Shown here: positions 8,190-45,200 of the stretch, in pieces
How positions within the stretch are numbered: position 1 is the first letter of the stretch
How the letters are laid out: the number at the start of each line of letters is the position of its first letter
Origin: Lama guanicoe
Lineage: Eukaryota
DNA length: 64,000 nt
Direction: 5' to 3'
NCBI GenBank assembly: GCA_013239625.1
Contig: MU053823.1
Location: 689,565 to 753,564 of the forward strand
Made by a program: the position numbers and the translations under genes
Notes under the pieces: generated by a model
The model's input: only the letters and a program-made list of their open reading frames with translations
Database searches by the model: none
What the model was told of the DNA's origin: nothing

Positions 8190-9050
8190 TTCGCCAGACT
8201 TCAAGATGGTCGTCGTCCTCCCAAAGGACCGCGCGCACCTGCCGCGGAGCAAGATGGCGCGTTTCCTCATCACTTCTCCAGGATGGAGATTTCCTTAACG
8301 TGAATCACGCAGTTGGAGGGCATCCCTGCCATTACCCAAGATGGTGAGTCGCGCAATCTCACCGTTTCCAGATTTCAACATGGCTCCCTCAAGCCGCGCC
8401 ACCGGAGCTTAATCTCAGGAACCAAGCTCAACTCGCGCGGAAGTAGCGTCAGCGGAAGTTGTTGCGTAACGCGACGCCCCGCCCCCACGCCCGCCCCCGT
8501 CCCGACGCCCCGCCCCCGGCGGCGCTGAGAGCAGAGCCAAGATGGCGGCCGAGCTGGAGTACGAGTCTGTGCTGTGTGTGAAGCCCGACGTCAGCGTCTA
8601 CCGGATTCCGCCCCGGGCCTCCAACCGCGGTTACAGGTACTGACTCCGAGGCACTACGGCGCACGCGTGCCGGTCGGGGATGACACTTCCCTCCTCGGGT
8701 AGCACGCTGCCTGTCCCTGCCACTGCCAGCTCTGGGTTGTCACCTTGCTAGCCTCCCCACCTGGATTATTATCGCCCTGGTCTGCTCTTCCCCGATTCTG
8801 GACTGCCATCATCCTTGTTTCCTCCGCTTAACAAAAAAAATTACCCTCCTGTGTCCTCCCACTCCTCCTCCCCCGGACCCTCTAGGTTCCCCATCTGCTC
8901 CCCATCATTCACGTCCAGTCTTGCCAGCTCCACCGCCGGTCACCTTTCGTTTCGCTCTTCCCTGCGTCCTTCAGCTTGTCACCCTCATCTCCCCTTCCTT
9001 CCCTCGCCGTCTCACACACGCTTCCAAGACCCCGTGCGCATCTGTGGGTA
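8190..9050 (+). promoter_or_regulatory. CpG-island promoter of NECAP1 with YY1-, ETS/GABP- and Sp1-type motifs
   Basis: CpG-dense stretch around exon 1. CAA(G/C)ATGG at 8202, 8250, 8337, 8376 and 8538; tandem GCGGAAGT at ~8437 and ~8452; CCCCGCCCC boxes at 8477-8517. Confidence 0.85.
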
Positions 9051-12000
9051 ATCATTGTGTTCTTGGCTCCTCTCGGGATGAGCTCATTTTTCTTTTGTGC
9101 TGTTCAGTCTTGCCACCAAATATCGTCTTCCATCGTATGGTTTTCCCTTCAGCTCTTTTGCCAGTGAGCAAAGGTTAAGATCCTAAGTTTTCCAACGCTT
9201 GTCCAGTCCGTTACTTTTCAGTGTCTTTTCTCTGTGGCTCTGTAGTATTTGCTGCCTCCCTTCTCTCTTAACTTCTCCTATAGCCTTTGCTTCTAGAGTT
9301 AACGCAGCATTTTCTTTGTAGGGTTAACAAACCACCTTGTAATCCCATGACTGTGAGGGTCTTTGGATGCTGTAGGAAGTTGTGAAGTCATGCAGTCCAA
9401 AGAGTTAACATAACTCAGTGGGTTACCTGTTTAAAAATACGGTCATGAGCCCTGGCAACTTAACAGCTATATGATTTGGGACAAATTTCTTAACCTCTCC
9501 AAGCCTAAGTTTTCTCATCTGTAAAATACGAAAAAAAAGTTGATAATAAAACCTGCTCTAGCTGTGTATCCTGTAGAAGTTTTTGGAGGGGTTATTAAAA
9601 TCATGTAATAAGTGTGAAAAAGAATTTAAAATGAATTTCCTATAAAGAATTTAGGAAAGAGTAAAGCAGTATATAAATATAAGATACTGTTTTTATTTCT
9701 CTGACTCACATCACCATCATGATTTTCCTCTTGGCATTTATTGTTACCTTCTCTGAAAAGGTATCCTTTCCTTATGTCCATTATTTTGCCTCCTTACTAG
9801 AGGTTCCTTCATCATGAATCAGTATCTCTGTGCTTACTGACCTGTGCACTAGACCCTGGGGGTTGTACCCTTTGGCACAGAGGTAGTCCTAATTTCAGGC
9901 TTTCCATCGGATTCCCAAATTGATGATGAATAGGAATCTACATATTTTTGGATGGTAGTCGCAGGTACTAATATGTGTGAGTCAGCTGAGACATCTCCTT
10001 CCTTGGGAAGCCCTCCTGGATCTTCCATCCTGGCTTAGGTGTGGTCTCCGTGCGCTTCCGTAGCACCTGTGCCTGTCTCTATCCCGGTGCTGCTCCTTCC
10101 GCGTTGTAATAGATTGTTTGGTCTCCCGTGCCTTCAGACTGGACTCTGAACACCTTGAGGTCTTTTTAAACTTTGTATTCCCAGGGTCTAGCAGTTTCTG
10201 GCACATAATGAGGCCTCTGTAAATGTTGACTGAAAGAAGAAATTAGTAGATTACACTTAATTATAACAATTAGCACTGATTGAACTGTTAAATAAGGTAA
10301 AAAATAGCTCATGACGTCCAACTTTAGGAGCTAAGACATCCTAAGGGATATGATACACATTGAAGTGGCATTCTGTTCTTTTTCTTCTACTTTATTCATT
10401 TTTTTTTAATGAATGTACAGGGGATTGAACTCAGGAATTGTGCATGCTGAGCCCCCCACTCTACAGCTGAGCTGGACCCAGCCCCACTTCAGGCTATTTA
10501 AAAGACCTTTTTCTCTTACCCATCTACAGCCTCTACCTTCACTTCCGGGTTTATCCACAACCTTTATCCTTGTGTCAGTAACTGCACTGAGCCATCAAAG
10601 TGATTTCTTAATTTTCCTCTTTTTCTTGTTACCATTCTGTGTTTTCCATGCTTATTATTGGCATCTTATGCTATCAAAGGAGTTTTACATCAGCCACTCT
10701 TCACTTGAAGAGAGCAGAACTGAGTTTGAGTTGTGATTCTCCTTGATTTGCTGGGTTACTTTTGGCAAGTTACTTAACTCTTTTGAACTTTAGTTTCCTC
10801 ATGTATAAAAATGGATATACTGTTACTAACTTTGCAGGATCCTCTCACTTAATTTTTACCAGAATGGGCATAATTCCTGGCACATAATAGATGCTTGACA
10901 AATAGTACTTTTCTGTGTTTTTGTCTGTGTCGTCTATTCTGTTGTTTACCAGAACCCATTTTATATTATGAGCATGATTTACACTCCAGGCTGCCATTAA
11001 AGGAAAAACTCAACTTTATAGGAAGCAGGAGAGAGAAATGCTTTCTTTGAGTGACTAATAAGCTCAGAGGGAGTAACTGACTTTGATTCTCCTAGTGTAT
11101 GTAAGCTGTTGCTTCCCAGACTCTCAGTGACCAGACTTACGGAAGGAAAATTTAGGTTGATGCCAAACTTATAAGTGGTTAGAAAATGGTTTCCCAATCT
11201 GTAAAACTGTTTTTTTAAATTCATTATTACCTGCTTCCCCAGCTAAATCAGTATTAAACTCAATAGTGTGTTTTAATGTAATGAACAGAATGCTGGACTT
11301 TGAAGTTAGGGATCATTCCTTACTGTGCTGTTGTCCTTTTCTTCATCTGGAGAGAGGTGTTAGGTCTTTCATGCCTATTTCATACGACGGCTGTAAGAAT
11401 TTATTGCCAAGTAGATGAAAATTTCTGAGGTCAGTTTTGAAGACCAGTAAAACCAAGATTTCCTCAGGCTAGGTCTGGGGTGTGGGAGAGGAATTAAGGC
11501 TCAGGATGGAGGGAAACTGCTACCATGAGCATCCATTCACCTACTGAGAATTTGTTACACATTGGCCACTAGATACACAAATAAGCCAAGGAACCTGTCC
11601 AGAGAAACACATCTAGGCAGGCTTGTTCCTAATATTTTCAGTAGACCATTTACACTCTGTCTAGCTGGTGGTGGTATAGTGGAATAAGTAACAGCTCATT
11701 TAAAAAATCTAATAGACAGGGACCTCTAGGGCGCTCTCGTCTGGATCAGATTCAGGTATTGAAGGTCTGTGAGGCAGGGCATCAAGAGAGAAGGGCATGA
11801 CAAAGATTTATCTTATAAATCCTATTCAGAACCTGTGCTAATTAAAATTTTCATTTCATCCTTTTCACCTTTTGCCTTCCATCTTGTTCAGCTTTTTAAA
11901 ATTTTGGTGTACTTTCTGGGTTCAATCCCCAGTACCTCCATTAAAATTTTGGTGTACTTTTACTGTTACCTTCCTAACCTGCAAGTATTAGTCTTCAGGT

Positions 12001-15000
12001 TCCCAAGGGATGAGTTGTCAGTAACTTTTACTTTGCCCTCCCTTTTCCACACTGCTGGCAAAACAGTATCACAAGTGCAGTGTTTTGTAAAATTGGTCAT
12101 AATGTCTTAGGTTAAATAATGTCTTAAATAATGTCTTAGGTTTCATTCAAATTCACTTATAACACAAATTTTAAGCATTCAGTTTTGTAATGTTTCCATG
12201 GACATTTGTATCACTAGTTCACATGTCTTTCCTGCATTCCAGTCATATATTCAAATGCATACTCGGTTACACATCTCAGACTCAACGTATCCGAAACTGA
12301 ACTCCCAGTCTTTCTTCCCAGACATGTTCTACCTGTAGCCTTCCTCATCTCAATTATCGGCAACTGCTCTGTTCAAGGTAGAAACCTTGGAGTCATCCTT
12401 GACTTAATCTCTGATTTCTCTCTCTCTTCTGCCTCACATCCAATCTGTTAGAAAATCCTGCTGCCTTTACTTTAAATATATCCACAGTCCAGCCACTTCT
12501 GCTACTCTGTCTTCCTGGTCACCACCATGAGTCTCCTAGATTACTCTTAACTAATCCCCCTGCTTCAGCACATTCCTACACCCCTTCTATTCGCAGCAAA
12601 GTAATCCTTTTAAATAAAAGGGAGGTCAGGTCACACCCTGCTTCAACCTGTAAAGCCTCCTCTTTCACTCAGAGTAAAAGCCAGAGTCCTTCCAGTGGCC
12701 TCCAAGGCTCTGCGTGATCAGCTACTCCCCCACCTCATCTGTCACTTTAATCACCATGGCCTCCTTTCTTTGCACTTGCTGTTTCCTACACCTGGAATGC
12801 TTCCCCCCAGAGATCTACACGGGTAACCCTCACTTCCTTCACATTTTTGCTCACATTTCCCCCTGTAAATAAGCCTCCCCTGACCACCCTCTTGAGTGCC
12901 GCAGCCTATTCGCCTTCCCACTGCCTTCCGCATCGCCCTGTTCTGCCTCTGCATTTTCTTTTTACTTTAAATGCTTACCACTGTCTTAAATATTAATTCA
13001 CTTATTTTTTTTTAAATTATCTATCCTCTGTTAGAATGTAAGCTTCATGAGGGCTTTATTTTGTTCCCTCATGTATCCCAAGCACCTGGAACAGTGCCTG
13101 CAGCTTAATGCACACTCTGTAAATACTGGTTGAATTCAGTGAAAGGTAAAATGTTCAGGGCTTTGGGAAGGCTTCTGTTACCCAGCGTATTTCATTTAGT
13201 GGACTTCGTTGTTCCTTGATCAGTAAAACACTATTATGTAAATTACCATCTGCAGTATGAAAATAGTGTCATTATGATACACTTTTAATTGCTTTCATTT
13301 GTACTTTTACATCTTTTCATTGATGCTTATTGGACTTCAGAATCCTCAAGTGGTAACATTTCTTCTCTGTGCTTTGGACTGTATGTAACGTGAGGCATCT
13401 GTGTAGAGGGGGTCGTGGGCTACTCTTTTTGATTACTTAATAGGTAGAAGGAGTAACGATCCAGAACAGGGAATTAGAAACATGGCAAATGATTATGGGT
13501 AGGTTTTTAGTGTATTAAAGATGTGGATCTGAGGCCTGAGGCTTCCCATTTTCCTACCCTAGGGCATCTGACTGGAAATTAGACCAGCCTGATTGGACTG
13601 GCCGCCTCCGAATCACTTCAAAAGGGAAGATTGCTTACATCAAACTCGAGGATAGAGTTTCAGGTAACTTGTGCTGCTGACCCTCTAACATATTAAGGTG
13701 TTGGTTTGGTGTTCCTTTCAAAGCACCTTCAAACTGGGGACTAGAGGGGAAGTACTTGTTAACTGAGTTTCAGAGTTTTGCTTCCTTTGCTCACAGAAGT
13801 CTTTTTCTTACCTGTCAGGGGAGCTCTTTGCTCAGGCACCAGTAGAACAGTATCCTGGCATTGCCGTGGAGACAGTGACAGATTCCAGCCGCTACTTTGT
13901 AATCCGGATCCAGGATGGTACTGGTAAGGATCAGGGACTTGAGTGGGATGAGCCTAAGGAAGTAGTTCAAGCATTTCAGTGAAGGCGCATCCCCATGCAT
14001 TTATGCCATTTCTGTTTACTAAATTTTCTCCCTTTTCTTTAAATTTAACTATAGTTGCTAAGGGGGAAGGATTAACATGTTGTTTATAATAGATATGAAT
14101 ACAAGTTCAGAATGTGGTATTAAAGATAGATATAAATAAATCAAAATGTATATCTAACCAAAGAATTGACACATACTGCCTGCTGATTGTTTGTGGTGAT
14201 GTTTGCTGGGACTGTCTTAAATCACCTGTGTTTATGGTGATCAGTATCTTTTCTCCATAGTCTGTGTCAGAGGTTGGCAAACTTTTTCTGTGAAGACACA
14301 GATAATAAATATTTCAGGTTTCGTGGGCCGAATGGTCGCTATTGCACCTACTCAGTTCTTTTGCTCTAGGGCAAAAGCTGCCGTGGATAACGAACGCGTG
14401 AACGCAGTGGTGTGTTTGTGCTCCAGTAAAACTTGATTGACAAAAACAAGCTGTGGCAGCGTTTGGCCCGCGGGCTGTCGGCAGTTTGCGGACCCCCGGT
14501 CTGTGAGACAGCGCGTCGCACTCACGGACTTGATCCGGCTAGGGTGACCGCTGTGTTTTCGTTGGGCAGAGTGCGCTGCTGGGTGCTTCCTGCTCTGAGG
14601 ATTCCTGTCTTTCTCACAGGGCGAAGTGCCTTCATTGGCATTGGCTTCTCAGACCGGGGCGATGCCTTCGACTTTAACGTCTCTTTGCAAGATCACTTCA
14701 AGTGAGTGACGCTGGTCCTTAGTTGCCAGGTTAAGTGTTTTGGGACTGCTGCTGCTCAGTTGAGTGGGCGCTCTCTTACCTCCTGGCTTCTTTATTTGAT
14801 AAACTAGTTCGTCACGGACATAGATCTTCCCCTCCACTGTTTTCTGGCACTGTCTTTGTACCCATCCTTTCCTTGTAGCTGGGGTGTGTTTCTGATCCCT
14901 GTGCAGCCGTTGGAGATGATGCCTTTGTTTCTTCCTCTGGAGACGGGCCCTTGCTTCTAGGGGGCAGAGGGGGGCGCGGCAGTACCGCAGGGCTGCGCGT

Positions 15001-18000
15001 GAGCTGTGTGGGGAGCTCTGTGCGTCTTGTGCCCGGGCGGCTGACGCGTCCTGTGCCCCTTGCGGCATTTCTTCAGCCCGTTTGATTTTGGCCTCCCACC
15101 TCGGGCAGGCGTGCCTCTGCGCTTCTGCCTCGGGACTTTCTGACATCGTGGAAGGCCCCCAGTTAGCGAGGGGGCAGCCTGGAAGGACCGAGGAGTTAAC
15201 GGCACCTCGGGGTCAGCCCTCAAGCGCGGGGGTGGGGACTTGTGGCTCGGTGCCCTCTTGGAGGGGCAGGTTTAACCTGCGTCTCGTGTGGTTCCTCGTG
15301 GTGTTGAGCCCGGTTGCCCTCTTTCTTGCTTTCTTTTCTCACGTTTCATGTTCCCTTTCTCTGCTTTCTGGAATCATGTTTCACATAAATTAGCTACATT
15401 CAAATTTGTCAGACCCTATTTTCAGGGAATCCCAATTAAAATAACATTCTCTTTTACTGAAGGTGGGTAAAGCAGGAATCTGAGATTTCCAAAGAGTCTC
15501 AGGAAATGGATGCTCGTCCCAAGCTGGATCTGGGCTTCAAGGAAGGCCAGACCATCAAGTTGAGTATCGGGGTGAGTGTGGTTCCCCCGCCTGTCCTTGT
15601 ATTTCCGTAAGCCGATGACTTCTCTTTTGCTTTCTCTCACTCTCCTCCTTTTTTTCCTTTGTAGAACATTACAACCAAGAAAGGAGGTGCTTCTAAGCCT
15701 AAGACTTCAGGGACCGGGGGTCTAAGCTTACTGCCGCCCCCACCAGGAGGCAGAGTCACCATTCCCCCACCGTCGTCCTCAGTTGCTATCAGCAATCATG
15801 TGACTCCACCACCCATTCCGAAATCTACTCATGGAGGTAGCGATGCAGGTGAGTCTCTCCAGGGCTTTTTAAAAACTTCACCGTTTTTCATTTTGTTTTT
15901 TGGGGGGTTGGTAATTAAGTATTTACTTATTTATCTATTTATTTATTTTTCTAACTGTTTATCTGTCTATTTAACTATTTATCTTGACTGCCTGTCTCTC
16001 TCTCTCTGTTTGTCTATGGAGGTACTGGGGATTGAACCCAGGATCTTGTCTCTACCACTGAGCTAGGCCCTCCCTCCTCTCTAGTGCTTTAACTTTGAGA
16101 AATCATATCTTGGGTTTTAATTGGGTAGCACCCATTTGCCAAGGAAAGTGTTGTGGTTTTGCTATAAATGGGCACTTTGTCCTGACAGGTGATTTTGGCA
16201 GCCTCTAGCGAGGGGTTAAAGCTTTCCTAGGGAGCCGAGAGTCGTGGTTCCTGGTGGGTTCTCTGGCAGGAATTGGGTAGTTAGTAAGAAGGCTGTGTCC
16301 TTCGTGTGCCTTGCTGAAATGCTAGGAGGCCTGAGAGTCAGGCGGACCAAGGTTGTGGTCCTGGTGCTGCTACTTTATGTCTGAATGTGTTTGGTAACAT
16401 CGTTTAAGATCTGTGAGTCTCCACGTCCTTGCCTGCAAGCAGGAGACGTAAAACCACCCCAGGACCGTGAGGGTGGAATGAGGTGACGGCACCGAGCACA
16501 GGGCTTGTGAGGCAGAAGCCATTCAGCACGTGTTGTTTCTTCATCCTTCCCATTTCTCCCCAGGGGCAGTCGAGAGGAAGTGAGACAGCATCTGATTTAC
16601 GAGAACATTTTCATTTTTCCTTACTGTCTGGTGGGATAAAAGAATAGATAAAGTTATTTCCACTTAAAGAATGCAAACCTAGGACTTGGGAGGGAATTTT
16701 CCTAAGATTAGAGAATCAAGCGTTAGAATCTAGGAGTTTTGCCTTTTATCTTTAATTAATTAACTATAATTTAATTTAATGTAACTTAAGGTTTAAATTA
16801 TATCATTAGTCATTTATAATGGATGGCTGAGAGCCAGCTTTCTCTTTCTGGAATTTTTGAGCTGTAAGTGGTTACAGTCTACTTCTTTTGTAAGTGCTGC
16901 CAGAAGGCACTGAGGAGCATATCTAAGATTTATTTATTTACATTTTTTTAATTAAACCTTTTATTTTGAGGTAATTGTAGATTCACATGCAGTTGTAAAA
17001 AAAAATAGTACAAAGAAATCCCACGTACCTTTTACCTCGTTACCCTCAGTGGGACCATTTTGCAAAACTGTGATCGAATAGCCCTGCTAGGAAACTGACA
17101 CTGATACCGTTCACTGGTCTCACTTAGATTTCGTCATCTCTGTGTATTCTCATTTGTGTGTATGTGTATTTACAGCTGACCCTCGAACAACGCAGGGTTT
17201 AGGCACACTGACCCCCACCGTGCAGTCGAAAATCTGTGTCTGACTTCACAGCTGACATCTGCAGGGTCAGCCAGCCACAGATCATGCCATACTGTACTGC
17301 GTGTTTACCGAAAAAAACCCATATATAGCGGACCCCCACAGTTCAAACCCGTGTCGTTCAAGGGTCAGCTGCTGTTCTCTGCAGTTCTGTCGTGTGTGGG
17401 TTCCTGGATCCGCCCCTGTCCCCTTGGTGAGGATGCTGAACAGCTCCACCACTGCAAGGGTCCCTGGTCACCTTTTTGTAACCATACCTCCCCAGCCCCG
17501 TCCCCCCACCCCCAGTCCCTAACCCTTGCTGCTCAGTCACTAGTCTGTTCCCCATCTCTAATTTTGTCCCTTCAGGGCTGTTCTGTAAATGAAGTCACAT
17601 GGCGCATAACCTCTGGGGTTGACTTTTTCCACAGCCTGAGTCCCTTGAGACTCTCGAGTTGTGTGTATCAGCAGCTCGCTCCCGTTGACTGCTGAGTGCT
17701 GCTCCACGCGTGGGTGTACCGCGGTGCCTTCAGTCATCCCCCGTGGAAGAATGTCTGGGGTGTTTCTAGTTCTTGGCTATTATAGATAAAGCTGCTGTGA
17801 ACATTTATGTACAGATTTTTGTGTGAATGTAAGTTTTCATTTCTAGAATTTTTGTAATGTTTCCCCTTTTCTTTTTCCTTTTCTCACCTCGTGTTCAGAT
17901 ATCCTTTTAGACTTGGATTCTCCTGCTCCCGTCACAGCACCAGCAGCAGCTCCAGTTTCCGCAAGCAGCGACCTGTGGGGGGACTTCAGCACCGCACCCA

Positions 18001-18375
18001 GGTATTAGCACAGGGGAGCCAGCCTGCTCCCAGCCACGAATGGGGTCTGCGTGCGGCCAGGTGCAATCTCTGGCGTGGGGAAGCAGAGCACTCGCAGGGC
18101 ATTTGGAGCCTTCGGTAGGAATCCTGGGTGAGGAGGTGGAGGAGCCCCGGGGCGGGGGGATCAGCAGGCTGCAGGGAGAAGCCTGATGGGTGTCTCAGGC
18201 CCAGGTGAGCAGCTGCTGTGAGGTGTAGTTTCAGGGATTCTGAACAGAGATTTCCCGCAAACCTGAAGGAACAGCGTTCCTGTCCTAATACGCCTTTGGC
18301 CTTCTCTCTGTTCTCCTGCCTTGCAGCTCTGTTCCAAGCCAGGCGCCACAGCCATCCAACTGGGTCCAGTTCTGA
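8542..18375 (+). CDS. NECAP1: NECAP endocytosis-associated 1 (adaptin ear-binding coat-associated protein 1), 8 coding exons, 275 aa
   Basis: Exons 8542-8636, 13563-13663, 13819-13923, 14620-14701, 15463-15571, 15665-15848, 17899-18001, 18327-18375. All introns are GT-AG, phases are compatible, total 828 nt. Translation [54 protein letters not shown]...[16 protein letters not shown]...DLWGDF...SNWVQF* shows the PHear domain, KEG motif and C-terminal WxxF motif. Confidence 0.98.
11916..11942 (+). mobile_element. Doubly truncated SINE fragment with target-site duplication
   Basis: CTGGGTTCAATCCCCAGTACCTCCA between perfect direct repeats TTAAAATTTTGGTGTACTTT (11896-11915, 11941-11960). Confidence 0.85.
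12200..13140 (+). mobile_element. LINE-2 3' relic
   Basis: L2 hallmarks ACCTTGGAGTCATCCTTGACT, AGAGTAAAAGCCAGAGTCCTT, TAGAATGTAAGCTTCATGAGGGC, AAATACTGGTTGAAT. Confidence 0.75.
14268..14498 (+). mobile_element. MER58A-like hAT-Charlie MITE
   Basis: Terminal inverted repeats CAGAGGTTGGCAAACT...AGTTTGCGGACCCC with near-matching 8-bp flanks GTCTGTGT / GTCTGTGA. Confidence 0.8.
15885..16075 (-). mobile_element. tRNA-derived SINE (Vic-1-like), internally deleted
   Basis: ATGGAGGTACTGGGGATTGAACCCAGGA...TCTACCACTGAGCTA. Confidence 0.8.
16950..17845 (-). mobile_element. Old LINE-1 3' end (L1MB-like) with nested Tigger-family MITE at 17173-17371
   Basis: L1 blocks (TTGTAGATTCACATGCAGTTGT, AAAGCTGCTGTGAACATT). 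MITE has ~26-bp TIRs CAGCTGACCCTCGAACAACGCAGGGTT / AACCCGTGTCGTTCAAGGGTCAGCTG, preceded by TA. Confidence 0.75.
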
Positions 18376-22152: not shown

Positions 22153-22166
22153 CCACTAGAGGGCGG
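22153..22166 (+). promoter_or_regulatory. CTCF core motif with upstream-module-like sequence
   Basis: CCACTAGAGGGCGG preceded by TGCATAGCC, within a locally CpG-retaining patch. Confidence 0.65.
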
Positions 22167-22604: not shown

Positions 22605-22935
22605 TGTGGGGGGAGGGGAGGAAAGAAAAGAGCAGCTTTATTGCCTTGCCTGGCAAAGGGAGTCACAGCAGGCTAATGCCTTAGAGACTGTGAGCCCATC
22701 TTAGGATTGGGGTCTTGAGAGGTTTTATAGAAAAACTGGACGGAAGAGAAAAGGTGATAACAATCAGGGCGTTTTACAGGGAGCGCCATTCATCTTAACT
22801 TCCATGGATCTTCAGGAGGAACTCCGGAGGGTCTGTCCATTCTTCTGAGATTATCAGCCTGTTTCTTCCTCCCTGGAGCAGAGCCTCTGGGTGAATGTTA
22901 TCCTCAGTAAAGACTGAATCAGAGAACAGTTTTGC
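22605..22935. mobile_element. ERV LTR fragment
   Basis: AGCAGCTTTATTGCCTTGCCTGGCAAAGGG...GGCTAATGCC resembles recalled ungulate ERV1-type LTRs. Confidence 0.45.
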
Positions 22936-23889: not shown

Positions 23890-24186
23890 GCGTGTGCACT
23901 GAACTTGCCCTCTAGCTTCTCCTGGACCCCTGCTGGAGGATGGAGGCCACAGGGAGCCGACGTCCGCTGTCCCAGTTGGGGTCATCTTAGCTGCGTGCAT
24001 GTCAATCTGGCATCTGACCATAGAGACATGAGCTGAAATCAGCCACACCTGACTCAAACCAGAACTACCCAGCTGAGCACAGCCTAACTTGCCAAACTCT
24101 CAGGAATTTGAGCTAAATAAATTCCACAAATGGTGGTTGTCTTAAGCTACCAGGATTTGAGATGGTTAGCAAAAGGTAATTGATAC
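23890..24186 (+). mobile_element. MaLR (MLT1-type) LTR 3' part
   Basis: CCAGAACTACCCAGCTGAGCACAGCC...TAAATAAA...GGTTGTCTTAAGCTAC...TAATTGATAC. Confidence 0.65.
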
Positions 24187-24434
24187 TCTCACAAGTAATT
24201 CTATTTTGTAAAAAAAAAGAAGAAATGTAACAAAACAGAAACAGAGTCATAGATAGAACAAACAGGTGATCTTCAGAGAGCTGGGGTTGAAGGAGATTCA
24301 GCTTTCTTATAAATTTCTTTTTTCTTTAGGAGATTTTAGTAGGCTTATTTTTATTATTGGCCAATGAAAAGACTTAAGACACAGGTTACAGAGAAAACAA
24401 GAAGTATGAGATTGACAACCTGAGAAGGATTAGA

Positions 24435-26522
24435 ATGGAATCTAAACATGTTGTGACTTAAGTGGACAGCCGTACCCTTAAAAGGAAAGGTAAGTATGCC
24501 TTTGACTGTAAAAGAAACACAGATTGAGCGTCCGATCCCAGTTTCCTAAGGATATCACCTTCCGTAGGTGATCAGTCAGTAGCCTGGAAGTCTGGGTGTT
24601 ATCTGCCCACGTGGAAAGAGTCCTTTGGCTACTGTCCTTGACCACAGCCTAGCATCCAGGGAGCCACAGCAGCGCTCCGGGGAGAAGGGCAGACCTTTGG
24701 TGTTGGGCTGGACGTGCTCACCTGTGGGCACTTCCGGTTTACTTGGGTTTTCTGCCCTCCGACGAGCATATTGCCACAAATCTGAGTTCTTTACTTGCTC
24801 CACCAAAAGGAGAAGCTGTGGGTCCTCCCTGAGTCGCTGGATTGTTGCCGTGGTTGTCATCCTGTTTGTCTACACCGGTTTCATCACTACTGTAGCTGGT
24901 GTGCATCTTTCCTTTTCCTGCCTCTTGCAGATGCTTTTTTTAGTGTAGTCCAGTCATAACTTCCATACTAGAAACGTTCGTTTGTTTGTTTTTTTCCCAA
25001 CTTGCTTTCCTTATTTATTCATTAATTTGTATTTCTTTCTTTCTTTTTCTTTCTTTAATGGAGGTACTGGGGATTGAACCCAGGACCTCTATGCGTGCTA
25101 AGCACACGCTCTACCGCTGGGCTACCCCCCCCCCCCCCCCCCCGAGGTGTGTTCTTACTCCCTGTGAATCTGTGCTTTTCGCTCCTCTGTCAGTTGGTGT
25201 TTATTAGGGGCTTCTTATCTGATGAAATGCCCTTCTTTTCTCAGAGGAACTATAATCCAGTGGTTAACAGAACGGCTTCCCCGCCGCGCTCTCTAGACCT
25301 GAATTCCAGTCCTAGCGTACCCTCCGTGGGAGCTCAGGCAAATTTTTACCTTTTCAAAGACTTGGATATGTTACTTGTAAAAGTGGGGAAATAATAGTAC
25401 ATACTTCATTTTGTGAAGATCATACAAGTTAATTTCTGTTTGGTATTAGAACAGTGCCTGGCATGTCAACAAATGTGAGCTATCACTGCTTTCGAGGTTT
25501 TTTCTTATAATGCGCCGAGGTCATCGCTGGCATCAGCTGGTACTCATATTCTCCCAGGTGTATTGCTTGGGTTACTTCCGTGAACTCTTTTTTAACTAAC
25601 GGGATTTTTTATCCTTCCCACCAAGCTCTCTGTAGCAGTCTAAATCTTTGTGTATGTGTCCTTTTGAAAAAATAAAGTATTTCATTTTTTGATCAATCCT
25701 TGAAGTATTTCCAACTTTGGAAACTATTAATACAGTCTATCTTCTTCATTAATTTCAAGGGCACATGAAAAACTCTTAGTGCCATCCAACGTGTGTGTGA
25801 CTCATCTTTCTTCATTTAATGTAAGAGTTCTGTTGTAACTATGGTCTTTTAATGAATTATTTTACATTTATATGCTCTTTAATTATGGTCAAATATAATT
25901 TGGTCATCAAAAAAGAAATGATGGTTTAAAAGAACTAGGTGTTACTAAATGTGCTAAAAATACTCATTTTGTAATTTTAATTTTTTGTTTTCTTAGGATT
26001 TTATAAATTATGCCCTTTAGAAAAATATATACATCAAAATCCCCATATTGTATCTGTAGTTTTTTGATGCTATGTACATAAAATATGACACTTTCCTTGG
26101 TCCAAAATTTCACTAACCAGAATTCTGTTATGGGCACTTCAACACAGCTTGAGGAAAATGGCACAATATGATCTTGTGGTGCCTTCTGAATCATCAGAAA
26201 GATTAAATTATGCTTCATATATATATTCGTTTTTACTGTGTTTCTTTGAAAACTCTCAATCTTTACTCATGAGTCATTGGACTAATTTCTTTGACCTGTT
26301 AATTTGAAGTCTTATTGCATTGCTTCAGTTCATGAACTACAAACATTACTCTTGGTTGGTTTTTTACTTCCAAATAACTTCTGTGATCCTGCTGGCACTA
26401 CTATTAGAGGCATTTTGGTCTCATTTGCGTGACTTCAGTATAAGAACATTTGTGCAAAAGAAACTATTTTCCTGCACAGTAATAACATCAATGATGGTGA
26501 CTGTTCCTACAGCACAGCGTAC
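24435..26522 (+). pseudogene. Decayed Dectin-2-family (CLEC4-type) C-type lectin pseudogene, exons 1-4
   Basis: Exon 1 24435-24489 MESKHVVT*VDSRTLKRK with AAG|GTAAGT phase-1 donor. Exon 2 ~24806-24898 RRSCGSSLSRWIVAVVVILFVYTGFITTVA (93 nt, same size as CLEC4D/E exon 2; expected acceptor reads AA). Exon 3 from 25997 GFYKLCPLEK...F*CY. Exon 4 ~26374-26522 *SCWHYY*RHFGLIC matches the WSCCPxxWxxFxxxC spacing. Confidence 0.6.
25020..25143 (-). mobile_element. tRNA-derived SINE (Vic-1-like) with poly(C) run
   Basis: ATGGAGGTACTGGGGATTGAACCCAGGACC...TCTACCGCTGGGCTA followed by a long C run. Confidence 0.85.
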
Positions 26523-28654
26523 ACCGGAATGGTCAATGATAGCTTTCAAAGTTTCTTAAAATAATTTGCCTAATTTTATTTTTATGACCCCCTCATTGAG
26601 GATGGGGAGAAGAAAGAACAGAATTGTGCTTAGGGATAAATTTCAAGTGTTGATGTACAGTGTCAGGAGTGGCGGGTGTGGCAGACACCTAAAGGTCCAG
26701 TGAAAGATCTGCATAATGAGTCCAACTCAACCTGTAAGACCTTCTTGTTAGGGATCGGTCTATGAAGCACCCATTCTTGTCATCCACTCCTTTCTCTAGC
26801 CTTTTCCCACTGTGTTTACCAATGTCGACCTCCTGCAAACTCAGTCTTGCTTAGTTTTTGTGTTGACCTGAGCAGTCATACAGGACATCCGCTCCTCTAA
26901 TTTGTAGGGCTGAAATGAATTTTGCTGCTCAAAGACTTGGTATCTCCAGCACAAGTTATTTGCCATGTCTATGAATTTTGAAGTTCTTTACCCTGTCTTC
27001 ATAATACACTCCCTCCTCACACCAATATACCCATTTTCATCCGTTTCATGTGATTAGGGTTCTGGCCCAGTTTTTCTGCCCTTAAGTCTGGCTCTGGTTT
27101 CTCGTTGAGTTTTAGATCCTGTGCTGGAAACTGCTCAATTGGCACTCAGTCTTCTCCTTTCCAATCCCCTCCTTTGGCTGTTCTCTGTACCTGAAAACAT
27201 GTTATCAAGACTCTCAGTGTTATTACTTGTCTGATTTCAAATATGACCAGTGGCTTGAACATTCTCTGGCTGAGTCCTGCTGACTCCGGATTTTGATTTC
27301 CTCAGAGACTGATAATATTTTCAATCATGGCTATGTTAGACGTGCTTTCTGGACATTGTATAATTGATTCCTCATTCTCATTCCTGTGCTATAATGCTCT
27401 CAAAAGAGAGGTTAGCTTTTGCCATTGTAATCCTTTAATTTCTAGTACTGACTTATGTACTCTTGCCAGTTTGGGTAGTGTGGAACAATAGGAAGAATGC
27501 AAACTCTGAAATCATAAAGGCCTATTGTCAAAATATGCACAGGATGACGACTCAAATAGTGCAAAAGTGTTCATGATGGAAAGCAGGTCTCTCACACCAT
27601 CCTTCCCTACCCTAGCCCTATAGTCCTATCGTGCAGAGGTGAATTGTTTTAGCTGTGGGTTTTTTGTTTTGTTTGTTTTTTTTTGTCTTTTGTTTTTTAC
27701 TTTCTGGTGATTCCCCCCCTCCCCCCATGAATCTAAATAACACTAGTATCTCCATTTCTGAATATTATAATCTGGTACTCCTTGCTCCCCTAATTCTTTT
27801 TCATTTTCTATCTTCACCTTCTTTCACATTTTGATAATTAAATGGTGATTATTATTATTACCTTTAGTTATTAATTGATTGGTTACTTTTGTACCTCTAA
27901 ATAATATTTTTGTTCATTTATTTTTTGTGTTGTATCTCTACTGAAATGAAAATGGTTGCTCCTACACTCCCCTCACCTTTCTTTTCACTTGTACTTCTTA
28001 CCTTTTGTCAGCCACACTTCTGACTTTACCTCGTCAAGTTTGTTAACCTTTATGAGTTCCTGTGTTTTGTACAGAGGCTGACTCAAGGCAAAAAACTTCT
28101 AGATGATCATGAGTCTCTTGGGTCAAAGGATGGGCTAAGATTATGTTTGCTTCTCTGGGTCCCACATCTCAATTCTGATTTGTTCAAAAGAGATGGCTCC
28201 TATCACTAAGGTCAAATGGAGTCTGTTTGCTTAGATTCCAGAAGTTAGTTTAACTAAAGCCACATTTTGATTTGCTTCCTGAATTGGACTCTACTTATTC
28301 ATATAGCTTCTTTTCCTGGTATTGCTAATTCCTTTTTCTTGGATAATTTGTTTCTGTTAAACTCTTGTTTTTCAGCTCTTCCAATTAGCCTGTCTATTAC
28401 ATGGTGCTCAGTTTTAATCTGGTTTTCTCAGAGCCTTCCTCTGCTCCTCGGTACTGGACTCATGGTTCTCTGCACCTGTTTGCAGAGCTCATCTATGGAC
28501 GTCCCTTCCTGGCTCTCCTGGTTTAGATCTTTTTTGTTTTTTTTTAATACTGTTGTCTTTTTGTTGTTATTACAGTAGGTATAATTCTGTATACAAACTT
28601 AGGTGCGCAATTAATACCACATTCTTTTCCAAATGTTAAAATTTTATTAATTTA

Positions 28655-31703: not shown

Positions 31704-34700
31704 GTAGGGCAAGAAGAACCACAAAATAATCGTGAGTACTTTTTCCCCTTTCAAGTTTAACGAGGGCATACTTGATTATGACAAATATTTTAAAATATGA
31801 ATTGATGACAGTTGTAGTTGTGAAGATTGAAAGATGATGGGGAAAAAGAGGTTGAGGGATGTGAAAATGATTTTGGTAAAGAGGAAGGACTTAGATTCAT
31901 ACATTTGGAGTACCAGTAACTTGTTTATGAAATGTAAATTGGGGCAAGAGAGGAGAGAACGTCTGTAAAAATAAGATGAAAAAAAAGAAAGTTGGGAAGA
32001 TTCTTTTTAAGGGAAGAGGGAGAAGAAAGATACAGAAAACACATTGGCTGAGGCAGCAGTGTGTCTGAGGCTCTTACTTCATCTTCGTTTATGTTTTACT
32101 TAAGTGAAACAAATGAATTTGTATTATAAGAACATTAAAAAATAGCTTTGAGAAATATATAGAATGAATGCAGAAATATGTAATTTAAAAATTAATGTTT
32201 CACTTCATCGCATTACGCCACCCAAATTTCATTGACATCATGATGTACAATGGTCCTGAAAACCACCTTTTTGTGTAACAATATGCTTGGAGATTTTTTT
32301 TTGCCAGTACATACACATATAGTTGATTATCTTAATTGCTGTATAGACTTCCATCATGTGGATTCACCATAATTTAGAATCTCTGTTCTTGATGGTACGT
32401 ATCCAACTATTAGATTCCAGGGATTTTTTTTTCTATTTCCAAAATTACTGCAATGAATATTCTTTTTATAAATAAGTTATTTCTATAGGGTGGATATCTA
32501 GAATTGAAATTATGGCAAGTGTAATGCATTTAAAATTTGATAACTGGGGGGAGAGTATAGCTCAGTGGAAGGGTGTGTGCCTAGCACTGGGTTCAATTTC
32601 CAGTACTTCCACCAGAAATAAATGAATAAAAACATAATTACCCCCCCAAAACCCCCAAAATAAAAACAAAAACCAAAAAAAGAATAAAACAAATGCAGTA
32701 CTTTAAAAAAATTGATAAGTGCTTCTAACTTGATCTGTCTAAAAAGCTTTCTAATTTACTATTCAGCAGTGACATTTATTTCCTTACTGAGTGTTTCCCT
32801 CTGTCTCACCAATACTATGTATTTTCAATTTACTTTAAAAATTCTGATATATGAAAAATCACACCATAATAATATTTTGGTTTACATTTCTCTGAGCACG
32901 CTTCTTGTTTGTTTAATGGATTTTTAAAATAATTTCAGCAAGTTAGATTTTCAGCAAATTTCCTGCTCAAATGTTTTGCTCAGTTTTCAAATTGTTTTTT
33001 GAAATTCTTTATACAGTCTGGATATTAATATTGTGACAAGATTTTTCTTTCATATATTCCTTGTGTTTTAACATTATTTGTGTTATTTAGAAGTTTTGAT
33101 TTCTATGTCCCCAAATTATCAATATTTTGTGATTTGGGGGTTTTGAGTCTTGGTTATAAAAAGCCTGTCCTTATTCAAAAACTCAAAAAAGTTGTTTACG
33201 TTCTTCTTATTTCTTCCTTATTCATCGGTGAGCTCTGAAATTGATTTATTTAGGAAAAATCTTTAAGCTCTCCTCCAGATCTGAAATATTTTGGACAATC
33301 CATCCTTAGTTTGCTCCTTGGTAGAATTTACTTCCCTGGTTCTGGTAGCTAAGAACGAGACAAGCTAGTTCTCTTGTTTTTGTACAGGAGGAGGCGGCCA
33401 GCACCCCCGGCTGATCCCTTGGGCCATGGCTACTGTTCTCATCTCACTTCTAAGTGCCTGTTTTATTGCAAATTGTGTGGGTAAGTTATTAGCAAAAGTG
33501 GAACTCTCCTTGAATTATTTACCCGAGCAACTTTTATAAAGTTGCTCTGAATCTTTTGTTATCTTGATTTTCTCCCACATATCAATCTGTAATGATTTAA
33601 AATTCAGGGTCTTGGATTTAAAATTCAGAGCTACATGCTTGACCTTCTGTTCTTTTATGATGCTGCTTTGTATCAGGCAATGAAAGATGGAATTTAGACC
33701 CTTTTCAATACATGTGAAGGTTGGTGACCGTTATTAAGTGGTAAAAGTGAAGCAGAGCACAAAGTACTTTAAAAGCCATGGCATGGTTACCTTTAAGAGA
33801 AAGGGTGGGAGTTGAGTTTGGGCTCCGACAGCCACCTGGGGTGTTGGCAACACTGTGTTTCCTGAGCCCATCATTTTTACCCGGAATACTCGCTTTACAA
33901 TAACTTGATAAACTGTACACTTATGATTTCACTTCTTTAGATTTGGTTATATTCCAAAGTAAAAATATTTAAAAGATAAATAAATGTGTCAGGCTCATAG
34001 AACTTTGCAAGACTATCCCAGTATTCACCAAAAATCTCCACTCTAACACAAATTCTGATGGGAAAAGATGCTTAAAAGCACACGCACATGAAGGTTTGCA
34101 AAACTACCCCCACAAAGCACAGAATGGACCATGTGATGTGAAAAATATTAATCTTCAACAATTCCTCTCAACCAATACATCTGGAATGGGGACAAAGGAG
34201 CTGCGAGGGAAGAACAGAGAACGTGGGGGCTTTACTAGGGCAAGAGCAAGTTTAGAACAGTTGGCCCCGTTTCCCTAATTGAGTCATTTTATAGGGAAAA
34301 AAAATTAAGTTTTCTTCCTCCTCGACAGTGACTTATCACAACATTCTACGCTGTGAGAGAGTCTCGGGGGTGTTCAAGCCACCAAAGTACTACCCAAGGC
34401 TGACATGTGTCGCAGGGAAATCAGCACTGAAAGTTACAGGTAACAAGGAGCAAAAGAGAGTTTCTTTCTTATTTCTATTTCCATTCACATTCATAATCTG
34501 ATTTAAAATAATTTGTTAATAAGCCCGAGAAATTAAAATAACGTAAGATGAGAATCTGGCATGAGAGTGAACACCAGTAAATTGAGACAGAATTCTTCCT
34601 CATGATATAATCAGTGGAATGATTAACTGGAGAACAGAACACATTTACGGGCCCTTTTTGGCATCAGAAACATAGCATCAATTCCATTTTCTTTTCAGTC

Positions 34701-36899
34701 AGATATAGCATAAGGACTGTTTCCTCTGAGAATGTATAGCTTTGCCAAAATGTCTGTATCTCCTTTATTATTCTGGAGTTTGTAAAGGCTCGTTTGGGAG
34801 AATGAGGGGAAGTGCACGAGAGTTTTAGCAGGTTCTTTGCCTCCGTCAGACAAGATGTCCTGCAAGAGGCTTTATTATGGAAACACTTTAAATGTGATTG
34901 TAAATGGATGTAAGGACTGAAAAATGACCATGCCTTCTGAGAGAACAGCCTGTAATTTTCTCACAGTCGCTATGTGATTCAGATACTTTTGTCTAGAAGA
35001 TATTCAGAAATGTAATTTTCGGGATTTTTTAAGGGTGGACAGAGTGATTTCAGTAATCCTGGTTTTATCCTCATAAATGTTAATCGGACATGAGGCAGTG
35101 GAATAGTTATGCAATGTGCTACAGATGATGTGCTCCTGTGCAACTATTTTTATTTCGATTCTCACAGGAGAGGGAGCCTGGCATTGCTGCCCTGCTGGCT
35201 GGCGAGCCTTTCAGTCCAGCTGCTACGTTCCACTTACCGACAACAAGACGTGGGCTCAGAGCGAAAGGAACTGTATAGGGTTGGGGGCTCACCTGGCCAC
35301 CATCAGCACAGAAGCTGAGCAGGTCTGCTGGGAGGCGCACATCAGTTTCTCTGCTGGTTTGAATCTCTTTGCAGAGAAGGAGGAATTTCTCTGCTCTGCT
35401 GTGCCTGTGTGCCTTTGCTTCATCTATTCCATCCACCTGGAAAGACCTTCCTTCCTCTCTCACTTCTCTTCTTATGGCCAACCTCTTCTGGTCTTCCATG
35501 ATTAGATTCATGCATTATTTCCTCCAGAAAACTACCCGACCATCCTCCCTACCCCATCCGCCCTGTTCTAATTTGGAGCCCCTCCCGGGGTGCTCTGTGC
35601 ATCGTGGGAGCGTGGCCCTTGCTCCAGCGTGTGCAATCGTCCTTTCGCTACTCCAGCTCTTCCAACGACTCCTCCTCTGTGGAGGGCTGGAGCCACGCCT
35701 CACGCATCTTTGCATCTCCAATGGCCTGCACGGTGCTAGGCACACTGCATAGATCTTAATAAATGTTCAGTGGTAAGTAAATAAATGAATGATTCATCAG
35801 GACTGAAATGGCTTCTCAGGATAAAACACAGGAAAAATAATTCAAGTGTATGGTTGTCATTCTAAAAAAAAAATCTCAAGGTAAATTCAATTCTGAACTG
35901 AAACTTATTTCCTCATGTAATATATTTCCATGTCCGTGCCAGGACTCAGATTCCACTCCTTTCTTGGTTAGCAGGGTTTCCTGGATTCCGTGTTCATGGC
36001 TTTGTGACCTACAGGTTCACCAACTCTTTGAATAAAAAGGAATTTAATGAAATACACGGTTAATGAAGGCAATTTTAAAAACAAAAGTTCCTAAAAATCC
36101 AACCCTGTTAAGCACTGGGCTAAGTGACTTGAAAGCTGAGCTCAATCTTGCACAGCAATTCTGTGAAGCTGCGGCGTTGTCCCTTTTGGAGCTGAGAAAA
36201 CTGGGGTTTGGTGAAATTAAAGCACTGATTAATAGTACACGATGAATGTCAGAAGCAGATTTGAAAACAGACCTGGTGCCAACGCACTGGTGCTTAACGA
36301 GTAATTTATTTGATCTCTTTCCTCTTTTTCTAACATAACAGCTTTCCCGTGGTAAATACAAATATACTTATAATAATTCACATTTTTATACAGAACTTTA
36401 TTACTCAGTTTTTGGATAAACGGTTTTCCTATTTCCTGGGACTCACAGATGAGAACCTTGAAGGCCAGTGGCATTGGGTGGACAAGACACCGTTCAACCC
36501 ACAGATGGTGTGAGTATACAGACTGGGGTGAAGGAGCTTTATAGGCAAAGGTGAGAAGACAGCAAGGGGAATTCATCCTGGGGGAGCACACCCCCGTAAG
36601 GAAGACTGCTCAGAACAGAGCACTGTGTGCTGAGTGGCCGCCACACCAGGATGCAGCTCGAAACTGTTCCCCAGGAGCACTTTCCTTGCTTTGCCCTCTG
36701 CCCTATTTTACACACACACACACACAATTTTTTTCATTCCAGATTCTGGCATGAAGGTGAACCCAGCAACTCTCAGAGAGAAGACTGTGTTGTCCTTGTT
36801 AATGACCAAGACAAATGGGCCTGGAAAGTTGTTTCTTGTAACGTTGAGACAAGTAGGATTTGCAAGATACCTGGAAAGGATTCAGCTAGAAACCTGTGA
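31704..36899 (+). CDS. CLEC4D: C-type lectin domain family 4 member D (MCL/Dectin-3) orthologue; canonical start lost, probable start at 33426 (about 197 aa), or incipient pseudogene
   Basis: Exons 31704-31731 ([11 protein letters not shown], donor GTGAGT), 33388-33480, 34329-34439, 35168(or 35171)-35322, 36394-36509, 36743-36899, all GT-AG and in frame. [35 protein letters not shown]...[83 protein letters not shown]. Lies tail-to-tail with CLEC4E as in other mammals. Confidence 0.9.
32546..32712 (+). mobile_element. tRNA-derived SINE (Vic-1-like)
   Basis: GGGGGGAGAGTATAGCTCAGTGG...GGTTCAATTTCCAGTAC; degenerate TSD AAAATTTGATAA / AAAATTGATAA. Confidence 0.85.
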
Positions 36900-42251: not shown

Positions 42252-45200
42252 TCAATTATTTCTTTCTGGCATTTCACAAATCCAATACATACTGAAGAAA
42301 CAGGTTACGTCATTCCAACTTTGCTTCGGGTTTGAAGAGTCTCTTATGGTGGCACAGTCCTCCACTGTAGCTATGTTGTTGGGCTCCCCTATGTCCCAGA
42401 AGCTGAAAGAGACACGGGAGATTTACAGGAGGTGAAGGGACCCATTTACGAGCCAAATCCCATTTGTGTTATTTAACATCACAACAGTTTGTGAGGTAGG
42501 TAATATAATCTCCTCTTTATTGATGAAGAAAAGGAATCTCTGAGGAGCTAACCAGTTTCTCTATGTCATAGAGTTTGTGAGTAACGAAGCTGATCTGGGT
42601 CTTTTTAACTTTGTACTCTGAATCGGTCCCTCGTGGCTTTAGACCCAGAATGATATGTTATGGGACAGACTGGTATCCTGATGGATTTCTTTCCTTCACA
42701 CTCATATCTCCTACGACATTTGGCCCCCTTTATTCTACAGAGTTTGCCTTAACTGAGGTGCATACGTCAGTGGTGTTACAGTGCTGGAGTGAAACAACTC
42801 TTTAAAGGATCAGAGCCTCCTACTTTTACACCGTAAGAATCTCTTATCTTTCTCAAGTCACTGCTTTTGTCTCATTTACTACAGTTTGGGGGCATAAGAC
42901 CCTGCATCGCACCCTTTGCCTCTCCTGCATTTCCAGTGAATTAGTGTTCAGTTCCAAGCCCCTTCTCATTTTCGTCTGTTATTTCCCATTCATTCTTGAG
43001 GGAGTTCCAGGAAATGGGGGAAGCAGACCCTGATGCCTCTCTTTTCCCTCTTCCTCATCAGCTCTTTCCCTTCTTGCAACTAGTATCACCATGGGTGGGC
43101 ATGAACATACCTCCTGGAACGAAGGCTGTTCCGAGAACTCCCGTCAACTGCAGGCTAACATTAGGATTTGGGGCAATGTTACAGTTCTCCTACAAGAAGG
43201 AAATTACCTGAGATCCTTTGTGAAAGGTGTACCATCTACCCACTGCCACTGACCCTCGGTCACCTGGTCCGTCAGTCCAATATAAAACTCTTTCTTTTTA
43301 GGTTTTGTAAGGAAAAGGAATTCCTATGGAAGATACATACAAAAATTAGGAGATCCATTATTCCAGTGCTGAACAAATGTTGAAGGTAATTGTTATTAAA
43401 AGAGAGAAGGTAGGATCTGGACCAGAGATGATAGAAAAATGGGCCTGAAATTGTAAGATCATGGAAGATTATCTCCTGATTTGTTTTATTGTGCTAAAAC
43501 ATATGTACCCTAAAATTAAACCAATGAAAAAGAACCATCAGCAGAGAAGGAGGTTCTCAATAACTCATTCAAAGTTTATCTACTGTTATTGACAACACAA
43601 AACTTTATAAATCAGAACTTAAAGATAATAGACAATTTTTGCTCGCTGTCTTTCATATGACATGTTCATAAACATAATGGTCATTCTAAAATGAAGTCCC
43701 AGCCCTCTTTTTTTCCAGGCTTACTAATAAATGAGCTGAATGTGGGAATTTCATTTTTTTAGTTTCTTCTAGTAGTGAAAATATATTAAAGTTGGTATTG
43801 ACTTACAGAAATAGTAAGACCAGCATGTATTTCAGTAAATTTTTTTTAACACATAGTAATTGTATGCCCAATACTGGACACGTGACTGGAAAACAAGATG
43901 GCTCCTGTGACGGACACTGGAGGAAGCTGTACTCTCATTACCTGCTCCTCTAGCGAGTTGATAACCACCAGATGACTCCCCATGCTGGAGCAGTTTTTTA
44001 AACTTGCTGTCCAGGTCATGGTGTCAGTAGAAAAGAAGTAACAGCTAGACTGAAAATGCACCCAGTTCAATGGACAGCACTTCTTCAGTGAACCTGGAAG
44101 GAGAGAAGTTTCCGTGAGAGCCCCACATGAACTGGGTAAGACAACAGAAGCCTTCTTCGGGGCCAATAAAGCTCATCATTTACAGTCAGAAGTCTTGGAA
44201 CCCCTCATTCATGCCCCATAGCTCACCGTCTAAGACTTGTAGTTAAGTCCTATGTCAACAAGCACAGACAGCAATTTTCTTTTTTTTTTTTTTGAGACAT
44301 AATCCTTATTTTCCAGATGTCAGTGCCAAACACAACCATACATACAATCTGCCTCGGTTATGCTATTGGTATGGAACCCTATTATCTGTTCACAGACTGC
44401 CAAGGTCAGAGAAGTTTATGCATTTTATCTGAGTGACCTGTAAGTAACCATCTCTCGTGTTGGCCTATCAATGTACCCTCAACAGAATCTCCAAACTGCT
44501 TGTCCAGATGGGATCAAGTTCTTAGAATGATAGCATTTAAGCCTTTGAAGTTTCTTAAAAATAAATTGTCCAATCTCTCTTAACTTAATGGTGAGGACAT
44601 TATAGCCCGGAGAAGGAAGTCATACTCCAGTCTCATGGGGCATTTTGTAAGGCTTGGAACAAGACTACGTGGAAGAGTTTAGGGGTATGCTTCTGAGGTA
44701 TTTCCAAATTTCCTCCTCTGTGCTTTTTTTTTCCAAGCTCATTTTGGAAGCAGGTGATGAGTGAAAAGAAAAAGGGTACCACTGGGAATGACAGCTTCCT
44801 CTTCTAGATTTATTGTTCAGACATATAACTCAAATTTATTCTAAAAGTTTGCTATAATGTCCCCAAGAATTCCTGTCCCAATGCTAACTGACTTTCCAAA
44901 GTTCTAATCCTGTCCTCTTCCCAACTCCTCATTATTCTCTGACAGTACAGGCAAGATTTTGTATTTTGCTTTTGAAAAACAGAACCTAATCTGATTACTT
45001 TACTTATCCCCCAAATCAATCTAGAAACCAGAAAACGTTGATATGTAAATTTTGATGTCCAAACTTGAGGGCTATTATACTTGATCCATCATTATAGCAG
45101 GAGAGCTCCATTAAATCCTCACGCGGCTGGACCTTTTTCCCATCACAAAGTTGAAAGATGTGATACGTCACTGTAAGGAAAGGAGCACAGTTAGTGTTCA

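Follow-up and report, generated by a model that had tools for sequence, protein, structure and literature searches.

A fossil transmembrane exon of a short-tail Dectin-2-cluster lectin between NECAP1 and CLEC4D in Lama guanicoe

A single transmembrane exon (exon 2), lying between NECAP1 and CLEC4D in Lama guanicoe, is the only demonstrable relic of a Dectin-2-cluster lectin at this locus. The window that was analyzed, a 64,000-nucleotide stretch of contig MU053823.1, carries NECAP1 (+), the relic, CLEC4D (+), and CLEC4E (–) in that order, and the relic thus sits within the NECAP1–CLEC4D–CLEC4E cluster, the location of the Dectin-2 cluster (group II). We give about an even chance to the view that exon 2, possibly together with a first exon, is the orphan 5′ end of an old short-tail paralogue distinct from the living CLEC4A, CLEC6A, CLEC4C, CLEC4D, and CLEC4E. 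The death of this paralogue likely preceded the split between camelids and ruminants.

The CLEC4E gene of the window differs from Vicugna pacos P0284 by one residue, in exon 2, across the six exons compared, and a 50-residue CLEC4D exon is 100% identical to a V. pacos protein and 94% identical to that of the dromedary. Because 87 to 96% of the words of positions 24300–27000 were present in 14 DNA runs (six studies and five coded organisms, one possibly the source), this segment is not an assembly artefact; in three RNA runs the fraction of words was 0.05 to 0.14. By eye, what we take to be a camelid-type SINE and an MIR-like element lie in intron 2 of the relic (about 25058–25140 and 25245–25480), and a presumed LINE-1 fragment lies between the relic and CLEC4D (about 28700–30900).

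Table 1. Positions in the window of the relic, of the exons proposed for it, and of the neighboring genes
Feature	Position	Strand	Remarks
NECAP1	8542..18375	+	Upstream landmark; N-terminus and NITTKKGG exon match monotreme NECAP sequences
Possible first exon	24435..24489	+	55 nt from ATG; in-frame TAA at 24459; donor GT at 24490
Exon 2 of the relic (fossil transmembrane exon, short-tail Dectin-2-cluster type)	24806..24898	+	Open frame RRSCGSSLSRWIVAVVVILFVYTGFITTVA; donor CTG/GTGTGC at 24899; acceptor broken
"Exon 4" of the preliminary description	26384..26520	+	Weak CRD-like spacing, at chance; probably no real exon
Exon-5-like stretch (…EWRVWQTP…)	26586..26713	+	At chance; begins 65 nt past "exon 4"
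CLEC4D (MCL)	31704..36899	+	Downstream neighbor; codon 1 is GTA; WND changed to WKV
CLEC4E (Mincle)	42252..46739	–	Intact; six exons match V. pacos P0284

The identity of exon 2 was established with profiles. Our alignment of 81 proteins, named or placed (25 CLEC6A, 7 CLEC4C-like, 16 CLEC4D, 26 CLEC4E, 4 DCAR-like, and 3 turtle), was cut at exon boundaries, and the resulting profiles, which allowed for codon decay and tolerated frameshifts, were used to scan the DNA. Exon 2 scored 28 to 37 bits on five profiles and 24.5 to 37.2 bits across all seven, with a z of 9.5 for the joint profile (40 shuffles) and 2.0 for the CLEC4C profile. Over the whole window it ranked third, after the true exon 2s of CLEC4D and CLEC4E, on four profiles and second on the turtle profile, and it exceeded the next background match in the 64 kb by 7 to 17 bits. 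For the pan, CLEC6A, CLEC4E, and turtle profiles, its score was reached by none of 500 column-permuted and none of 500 block-permuted versions; for CLEC4D the counts were 1/500 and 3/500, respectively. A reversed profile gave 13 to 17 bits. At the DNA level, exon 2 aligns ungapped, with its donor in register, to the window's own exon 2 of CLEC4D (42/93 nt) and of CLEC4E (48/93 nt), which for scale match each other at 53/93 nt. Its best 19-residue hydropathy (2.52) falls inside the family range, and it has the sequence and phase 1 junction of a group II type II transmembrane exon. The preliminary description of this DNA, made from the letters alone, had allowed that significant lectin similarity might be lacking; the similarity of exon 2 is instead specific to the family. 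In a sliding HOXD70 comparison with the CLEC4D and CLEC4E loci, exon 2 was the sole in-register match, the other strong match being a shared SINE on the opposite strand. Because the introns of the relic showed no similarity to those of either gene in this comparison, exon 2 is not a recent duplicate.

The exon is nevertheless broken at its acceptor, as position 24806 lacks an AG and the sole AG available gives an 89-nt exon (24810–24898) in phase 0. The 93-nt transmembrane exon of the preliminary description therefore holds as to family, but 93 nt is an alignment register and not a splice-site length. The CF pair conserved in 79 of the 81 family members has become GF. The Trp at codon 12 and the F-I four codons ahead of the junction are placed as in CLEC6A, CLEC4E, and the turtle short-tail genes. 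On a profile of DCIR-type exon 2s (four rows, none laurasiatherian), the exon scored 17.5 bits, under the null mean of 20.2, and it is not the long-tail transmembrane exon of CLEC4A/DCIR. Nor does it carry the transmembrane arginine through which CLEC4E/Mincle engages FcRγ (available part of PMC11624271), reading FITT rather than FITR or FIAR.

Exons 3 to 6 of the relic are at chance, with neither a stalk exon nor three CRD exons bearing EPN and WND, and across the window clear matches to exons 4 to 6 belong to CLEC4D and CLEC4E only. The four collinear exons originally described are thereby reduced, as both the third and the fourth lie at chance. For the third, which had been given without coordinates, a search that included a DCIR-stalk reading yielded a single candidate (acceptor at 25997) equalled by 89 to 466 of 524 null windows. 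The fourth, described as keeping the WSCCPxxWxxFxxxC spacing, reads stop-SCWHYY-stop-RHFGLIC; both Trp positions are indeed stops, but neither the second Cys nor the Pro is kept and one frameshift intervenes. Its position is the best plus-strand global placement of exon 4 for six of seven profiles. The region's best exon 4 score, however, was matched by 26 to 100 of 100 shuffles, and the chain of exon 4 and the exon-5-like stretch, which the preliminary description had not recorded, by 22 to 40 of 40 shuffles and by 7 to 13 of 17 real windows. Fixed-window ranks (top 2 to 42 of 518 for exon 4 and top 1 to 205 of 524 for exon 5) come from windows picked by eye and are no fair test. Pfam assigned no family to the three frames of 26340–26779, phmmer with exon 4 against the PDB returned no match, and none of 11 CLEC4D and CLEC4E exons aligned to the DNA of 20000–31500 exceeded 60 shuffles. 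Other candidates also failed: 26600–26720 as exon 6 is unsupported by the profile scans, splicing of the relic exons to CLEC4D exon 3 is out of frame with the sole AG, and the likeness to an N-terminal extension in one shrew gene model, at 20 bits, is no better than chance.

These scans had ample power. A CLEC6A exon 4 decayed in simulation to a divergence (d) of 0.5 still scores 33 bits, with 0/66 as low as the observed 4.0, and the exon 4 of an outside paralogue at d 0.3 scores 43 bits, with 0/60 as low as the candidate. At d ≤ 0.4, simulated exon 4s fell to the candidate's 4 to 5 bits in 0/66 (CLEC6A) and at most 1/60 (turtle) cases. The candidate would need d of about 0.6 to 0.8, but for exon 2 a decay of about 0.2 from an outside paralogue suffices (turtle exon 2s decayed to d 0.2 matched the relic score in 49/90 cases). 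Since these two ages conflict, the lectin exons were likely deleted and the exon 4 motif is likely chance. We conclude that the lectin exons are likely absent and not eroded.

The first exon of the preliminary description was reproduced in every particular, from start codon and in-frame stop to donor and phase 1 junction, and translates as MESKHVVT-stop-VDSRTLKRK. Its donor (AAG/GTAAGT) scores 12.2 bits on a splice matrix and is the top donor in the 13.2-kb gap between NECAP1 and CLEC4D. Besides one NECAP1 donor, seven other sites in 128 kb (both strands) reach at least 12.0 bits, so the chance of finding one within 1 kb upstream is about 5 to 6%. Positions 24435..24489 are thus moderately supported as a genuine exon. 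A GTG at 24462 could equally be the decayed start, as plausible as the ATG at 24435, and would give a 28-nt, Tyr-free exon; the exon is dead under either start. It shows no similarity to the exon 1 of any paralogue, scoring under all simulated decayed exon 1s of every family (0/180, 0/70, 0/140, 0/250, and 0/30), including all 180 CLEC6A exon 1s decayed to d 0.15.

The stop in this exon had been read as a tyrosine turned into a stop codon in a possibly inhibitory receptor. On this reading, the locus would hold a pseudogene with four exons, derived from a paralogue that bore an ITIM or from CLEC4A (DCIR) itself. In its favor, a single substitution separates TAA from Tyr, the stop comes after V-T, the exon, at 55 nt, exceeds the exon 1s of mammalian short-tail genes in length, and CLEC4A-type genes adjoin Necap from monotremes onward (PMC13076529, available part). 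Against this, TAA 24459 has seven sense neighbors, among which Tyr accounts for 16 to 22% of origins (about 18%, given codon usage and transition bias), and Gln, Glu, or Lys is a more likely source. The ITIM consensus is (I/V)xYxx(V/L); the residue at +3 of V-T-stop-V-D-S is Ser, and the candidate exon contains no such motif. Compared with four ITYAEV-type first exons it scored 7.0 bits (null mean 17.4), and neither exon 1 nor exon 2 matched the DCIR type, for which the comparison set comprised only rodent, shrew (exon 1), eagle, and alligator sequences and no laurasiatherian CLEC4A. Exons 3 and 4, as noted, lie at chance. Exon 2 belongs to the short-tail class (93 nt), in which the members are adaptor-coupled, and this points to an activating or adaptor-coupled ancestor; according to the available part of PMC11624271, Dectin-2-cluster members besides DCIR signal via adaptors such as FcRγ. 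We regard the inhibitory reading as largely refuted and very improbable.

A possible but rather unlikely explanation is that camelid CLEC6A (Dectin-2) survives in the relic as a 5′ stub, CLEC4A and the 3′ exons of CLEC6A having been deleted and exon 2 having evolved unusually fast both before and after the loss. CLEC6A gives the best mammalian profile score (34.8 bits, against 30.1 for CLEC4E, 28.4 for CLEC4D, and 24.5 for CLEC4C), and the relic occupies its syntenic slot and strand just upstream of CLEC4D. Many differences from the CLEC6A consensus are single-base changes, and shrew CLEC6A has S4-C5-W12 in common with the relic (11/28 identity). Ruminant CLEC6A exon 2 is fast-evolving (branch 0.4–0.67), and decay starting from the deer exon reached the relic score in 4/200 simulations at d 0.1 and 20/200 at d 0.15. 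However, deer, cattle, and sheep have an intact CLEC6A, and the standard exon 1 is present in a hippo model, so a camelid stub could be no older than the camelid branch, which, as a background value, is about 0.1 to 0.15 substitutions per site. When 11 laurasiatherian CLEC6A exon 2s (back-translated proteins, 88 replicates per level) were decayed, the relic score was reached by 0%, 2%, 1%, 10%, 31%, and 59% at d 0.1, 0.15, 0.2, 0.3, 0.4, and 0.5, so that at d ≤ 0.2 the divergence expected of a loss on the camelid branch matches the relic in only 0 to 2% of cases. Decayed CLEC4E and CLEC4D exon 2s reached it in 0% up to d 0.2. Global alignment to the exon 2 of ruminant, horse, and rhino CLEC6A is also low (21.5–25.5), the candidate exon 1 is unlike that of CLEC6A (0/180), and, given a cattle order that we take to be NECAP1-4A-6A-4D, two deletions would be needed and not one.

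Phylogeny, which the preliminary description had proposed as a check, could be run on exon 2 and placed it differently in two trees. In an 82-row tree the relic fell on the CLEC6A/CLEC4C side, beside gundi CLEC6A and other long branches; in a 26-row tree (25 of the 81 proteins plus the relic) rooted on turtles it fell outside all mammalian genes, with the turtle rows nearest. AU tests on 32 columns rejected no placement (p 0.27 with CLEC6A and CLEC4C, 0.42 with CLEC4D, 0.064 with CLEC4E, and 0.085 with deer CLEC6A). Mean identity was highest to turtle sequences (0.38), followed by CLEC4E (0.34), CLEC6A (0.28), CLEC4D (0.25), and CLEC4C (0.21), but the turtle affinity may reflect long-branch attraction, and the turtle profile holds three sequences only. 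Exon 2 is probably too diverged to be a CLEC6A remnant that postdates the ruminant split, but on these 32 columns the AU test does not reject such an origin (p 0.27). The earlier view that the relic is not simply CLEC4A or CLEC6A is thus borne out in part: exon 2 scores below simulated young remnants of CLEC6A, CLEC4D, and CLEC4E, and exon 1 fits none of the families, but the AU tests exclude none of them. Descent of the relic from a gene like CLEC4C (BDCA-2) that cetartiodactyls lost early seems very unlikely, given the lowest profile score among the families; such proteins do occur in a bat, beaver, tenrecs, and manatee, and the available part of the PMC13076529 supplement scores CLEC4C as absent in its cattle block, which would allow a longer decay. 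Least probable is a chance hydrophobic open frame beside a splice donor. The tblastn E-values are only 0.001 to 0.05 in 13 kb, Pfam assigns exon 2 no family, and no database homologue was found, but the permuted and reversed profiles, the distance from background, and the register with the exon 2s and donors of both CLEC4D and CLEC4E all stand against it. CLEC4O was also considered; it lies on human chromosome 19 and is unrelated by position (PMC12559834, available part).

Searches for an intact orthologue were weak tests: a 43-residue query gave seven candidates and no match, and the Atlas gave no usable match. Among representatives, matches were crowded by multi-domain lectins, and two metagenome scans for mammalian DNA near NECAP1 each returned zero.

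Of the known systems, CLEC6A shares with the relic the 93-nt phase 1 register of the transmembrane exon, a W-x-V-A-V motif, and the slot and strand upstream of CLEC4D; it differs in identity (relic mean 0.28, against 0.63 among CLEC6A sequences), in keeping CF and an acceptor, in its exon 1, and in having neck and CRD exons. CLEC4E and CLEC4D share the DNA register of exon 2 but not the introns, Mincle has the arginine that the relic lacks, and both genes are present separately in the window. The top pairwise similarity (up to 42–44% over 31 residues) is to turtle short-tail "CLEC6A-like" lectins (P0192, P0251, and P0276), which have in common with the relic a basic-Cys tail, LSxW ahead of the transmembrane segment, and a longer exon 1 (46–49 nt, as inferred); these genes are intact, unlike the relic, and the kinship may again be long-branch attraction. 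CLEC4A and monotreme Clec-like9 likewise adjoin NECAP1, but the relic lacks their I-x-Y-x-x-V ITIM and long tail, and its exon 2 is of another class. The available part of PMC13076529 describes a monotreme cluster of three genes between Necap and C3ar1, with an ITIM-like motif in Clec-like9, and reports CLEC6A as absent in dog and a pseudogene in rat. These are likewise lineage-specific losses in the Dectin-2 cluster, but the rat pseudogene aligns full-length to human CLEC6A at 66%, whereas the relic is one exon at about 28%. Mincle-like FcRγ-dependent receptors date back to fish, according to the part of PMC11929736 at hand.

The relic sits where the genes for DCIR and Dectin-2 are expected but not found. 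Profile scans detected no CLEC4A or CLEC6A lectin exon in 18400–31600 (NECAP1 to CLEC4D) or in the rest of the window, and the 120 of 503 protein matches listed included no CLEC4A or CLEC6A from a camelid, which is weak evidence. Cattle have both genes (PMC13076529, available part), and these results suggest loss of DCIR and Dectin-2 in camelids. We found no paper on the relic or on camelid CLEC4A/CLEC6A loss in a literature coverage that excluded most subscription journals and bioRxiv supplements; the main text of a paper on the camel NKC (PMC6614441), in the part available, does not mention CLEC4, CLEC6, or NECAP1.

Codon 1 of the neighboring CLEC4D gene (31704–31706) is GTA, whereas Met opens each of the seven camelid protein models seen (alpaca, dromedary, Bactrian, and wild camel). 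An in-frame stop lies four codons upstream of this GTA with no intervening ATG; a null allele or an assembly error is possible. In exon 6 of CLEC4D (about 36820–36835), the Ca2+-binding WND is WKV in the six camelid models that reach this exon, with EPS for EPN, and some Camelus models change CC to CR in exon 4. From these residues, camelid MCL may have lost sugar binding. Exon 5 contains no frameshift. Elsewhere in the protein set, an ITIM exon of DCIR type is joined in P0246 (a Suncus etruscus model) to exons 2 to 6 of Dectin-2; this is either a fusion made in annotation or a naturally occurring, inhibitory chimera of Dectin-2. P0238 (Pipistrellus nathusii) is a short-tail lectin with a CLEC4C/CLEC6A-like N-terminus and a DCIR-like lectin domain, recalling rodent DCAR. 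The CLEC4C-like proteins of tenrecs, manatee, and beaver speak against a primate-only view of CLEC4C, and the ruminant Dectin-2s P0234, P0329, and P0330 have a tail about six residues shorter than that of other mammals and a fast-evolving exon 2.

In the history that we favor, an old short-tail duplicate near NECAP1 would have died early. While alive, it would have encoded a type II lectin of the Ca2+ type whose short tail, free of Tyr, signaled through an adaptor such as FcRγ, like Dectin-2 or Mincle. A deletion likely took its neck and lectin exons, perhaps the same one that removed CLEC4A and CLEC6A from the interval. With a stop in the candidate exon 1, an acceptor that makes exon 2 an 89-nt, phase 0 exon, and no lectin exons, the remaining fragment would yield no spliced and translated product, and the relic itself is a non-coding fossil with no present function. 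We entertain, as a doubtful extension, the more specific view that the mammalian Dectin-2 cluster once had a sixth short-tail member, now extinct, of which the relic is what remains. This gene would have split off ahead of the separation of MCL, Mincle, and Dectin-2 and retained turtle-like features. If so, the fossil beside NECAP1 should be recoverable across placental genomes, perhaps intact somewhere, and the camelid cluster would have been pared to Mincle and a WND-less MCL, without DCIR and Dectin-2.

If the relic is a separate old paralogue, the Dectin-2 cluster would gain a lost branch in its history, now read as CLEC4A, CLEC4D, and CLEC4E (monotremes) with CLEC6A and CLEC4C (placentals) added. 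To camelid immunologists, the lack of CLEC4A and CLEC6A lectin exons between NECAP1 and CLEC4D and the changes in CLEC4D are more useful than the relic itself: provided that the missing genes do not lie elsewhere in the genome, camelids would be a natural test of life without the fungal and glycan sensors DCIR and Dectin-2.
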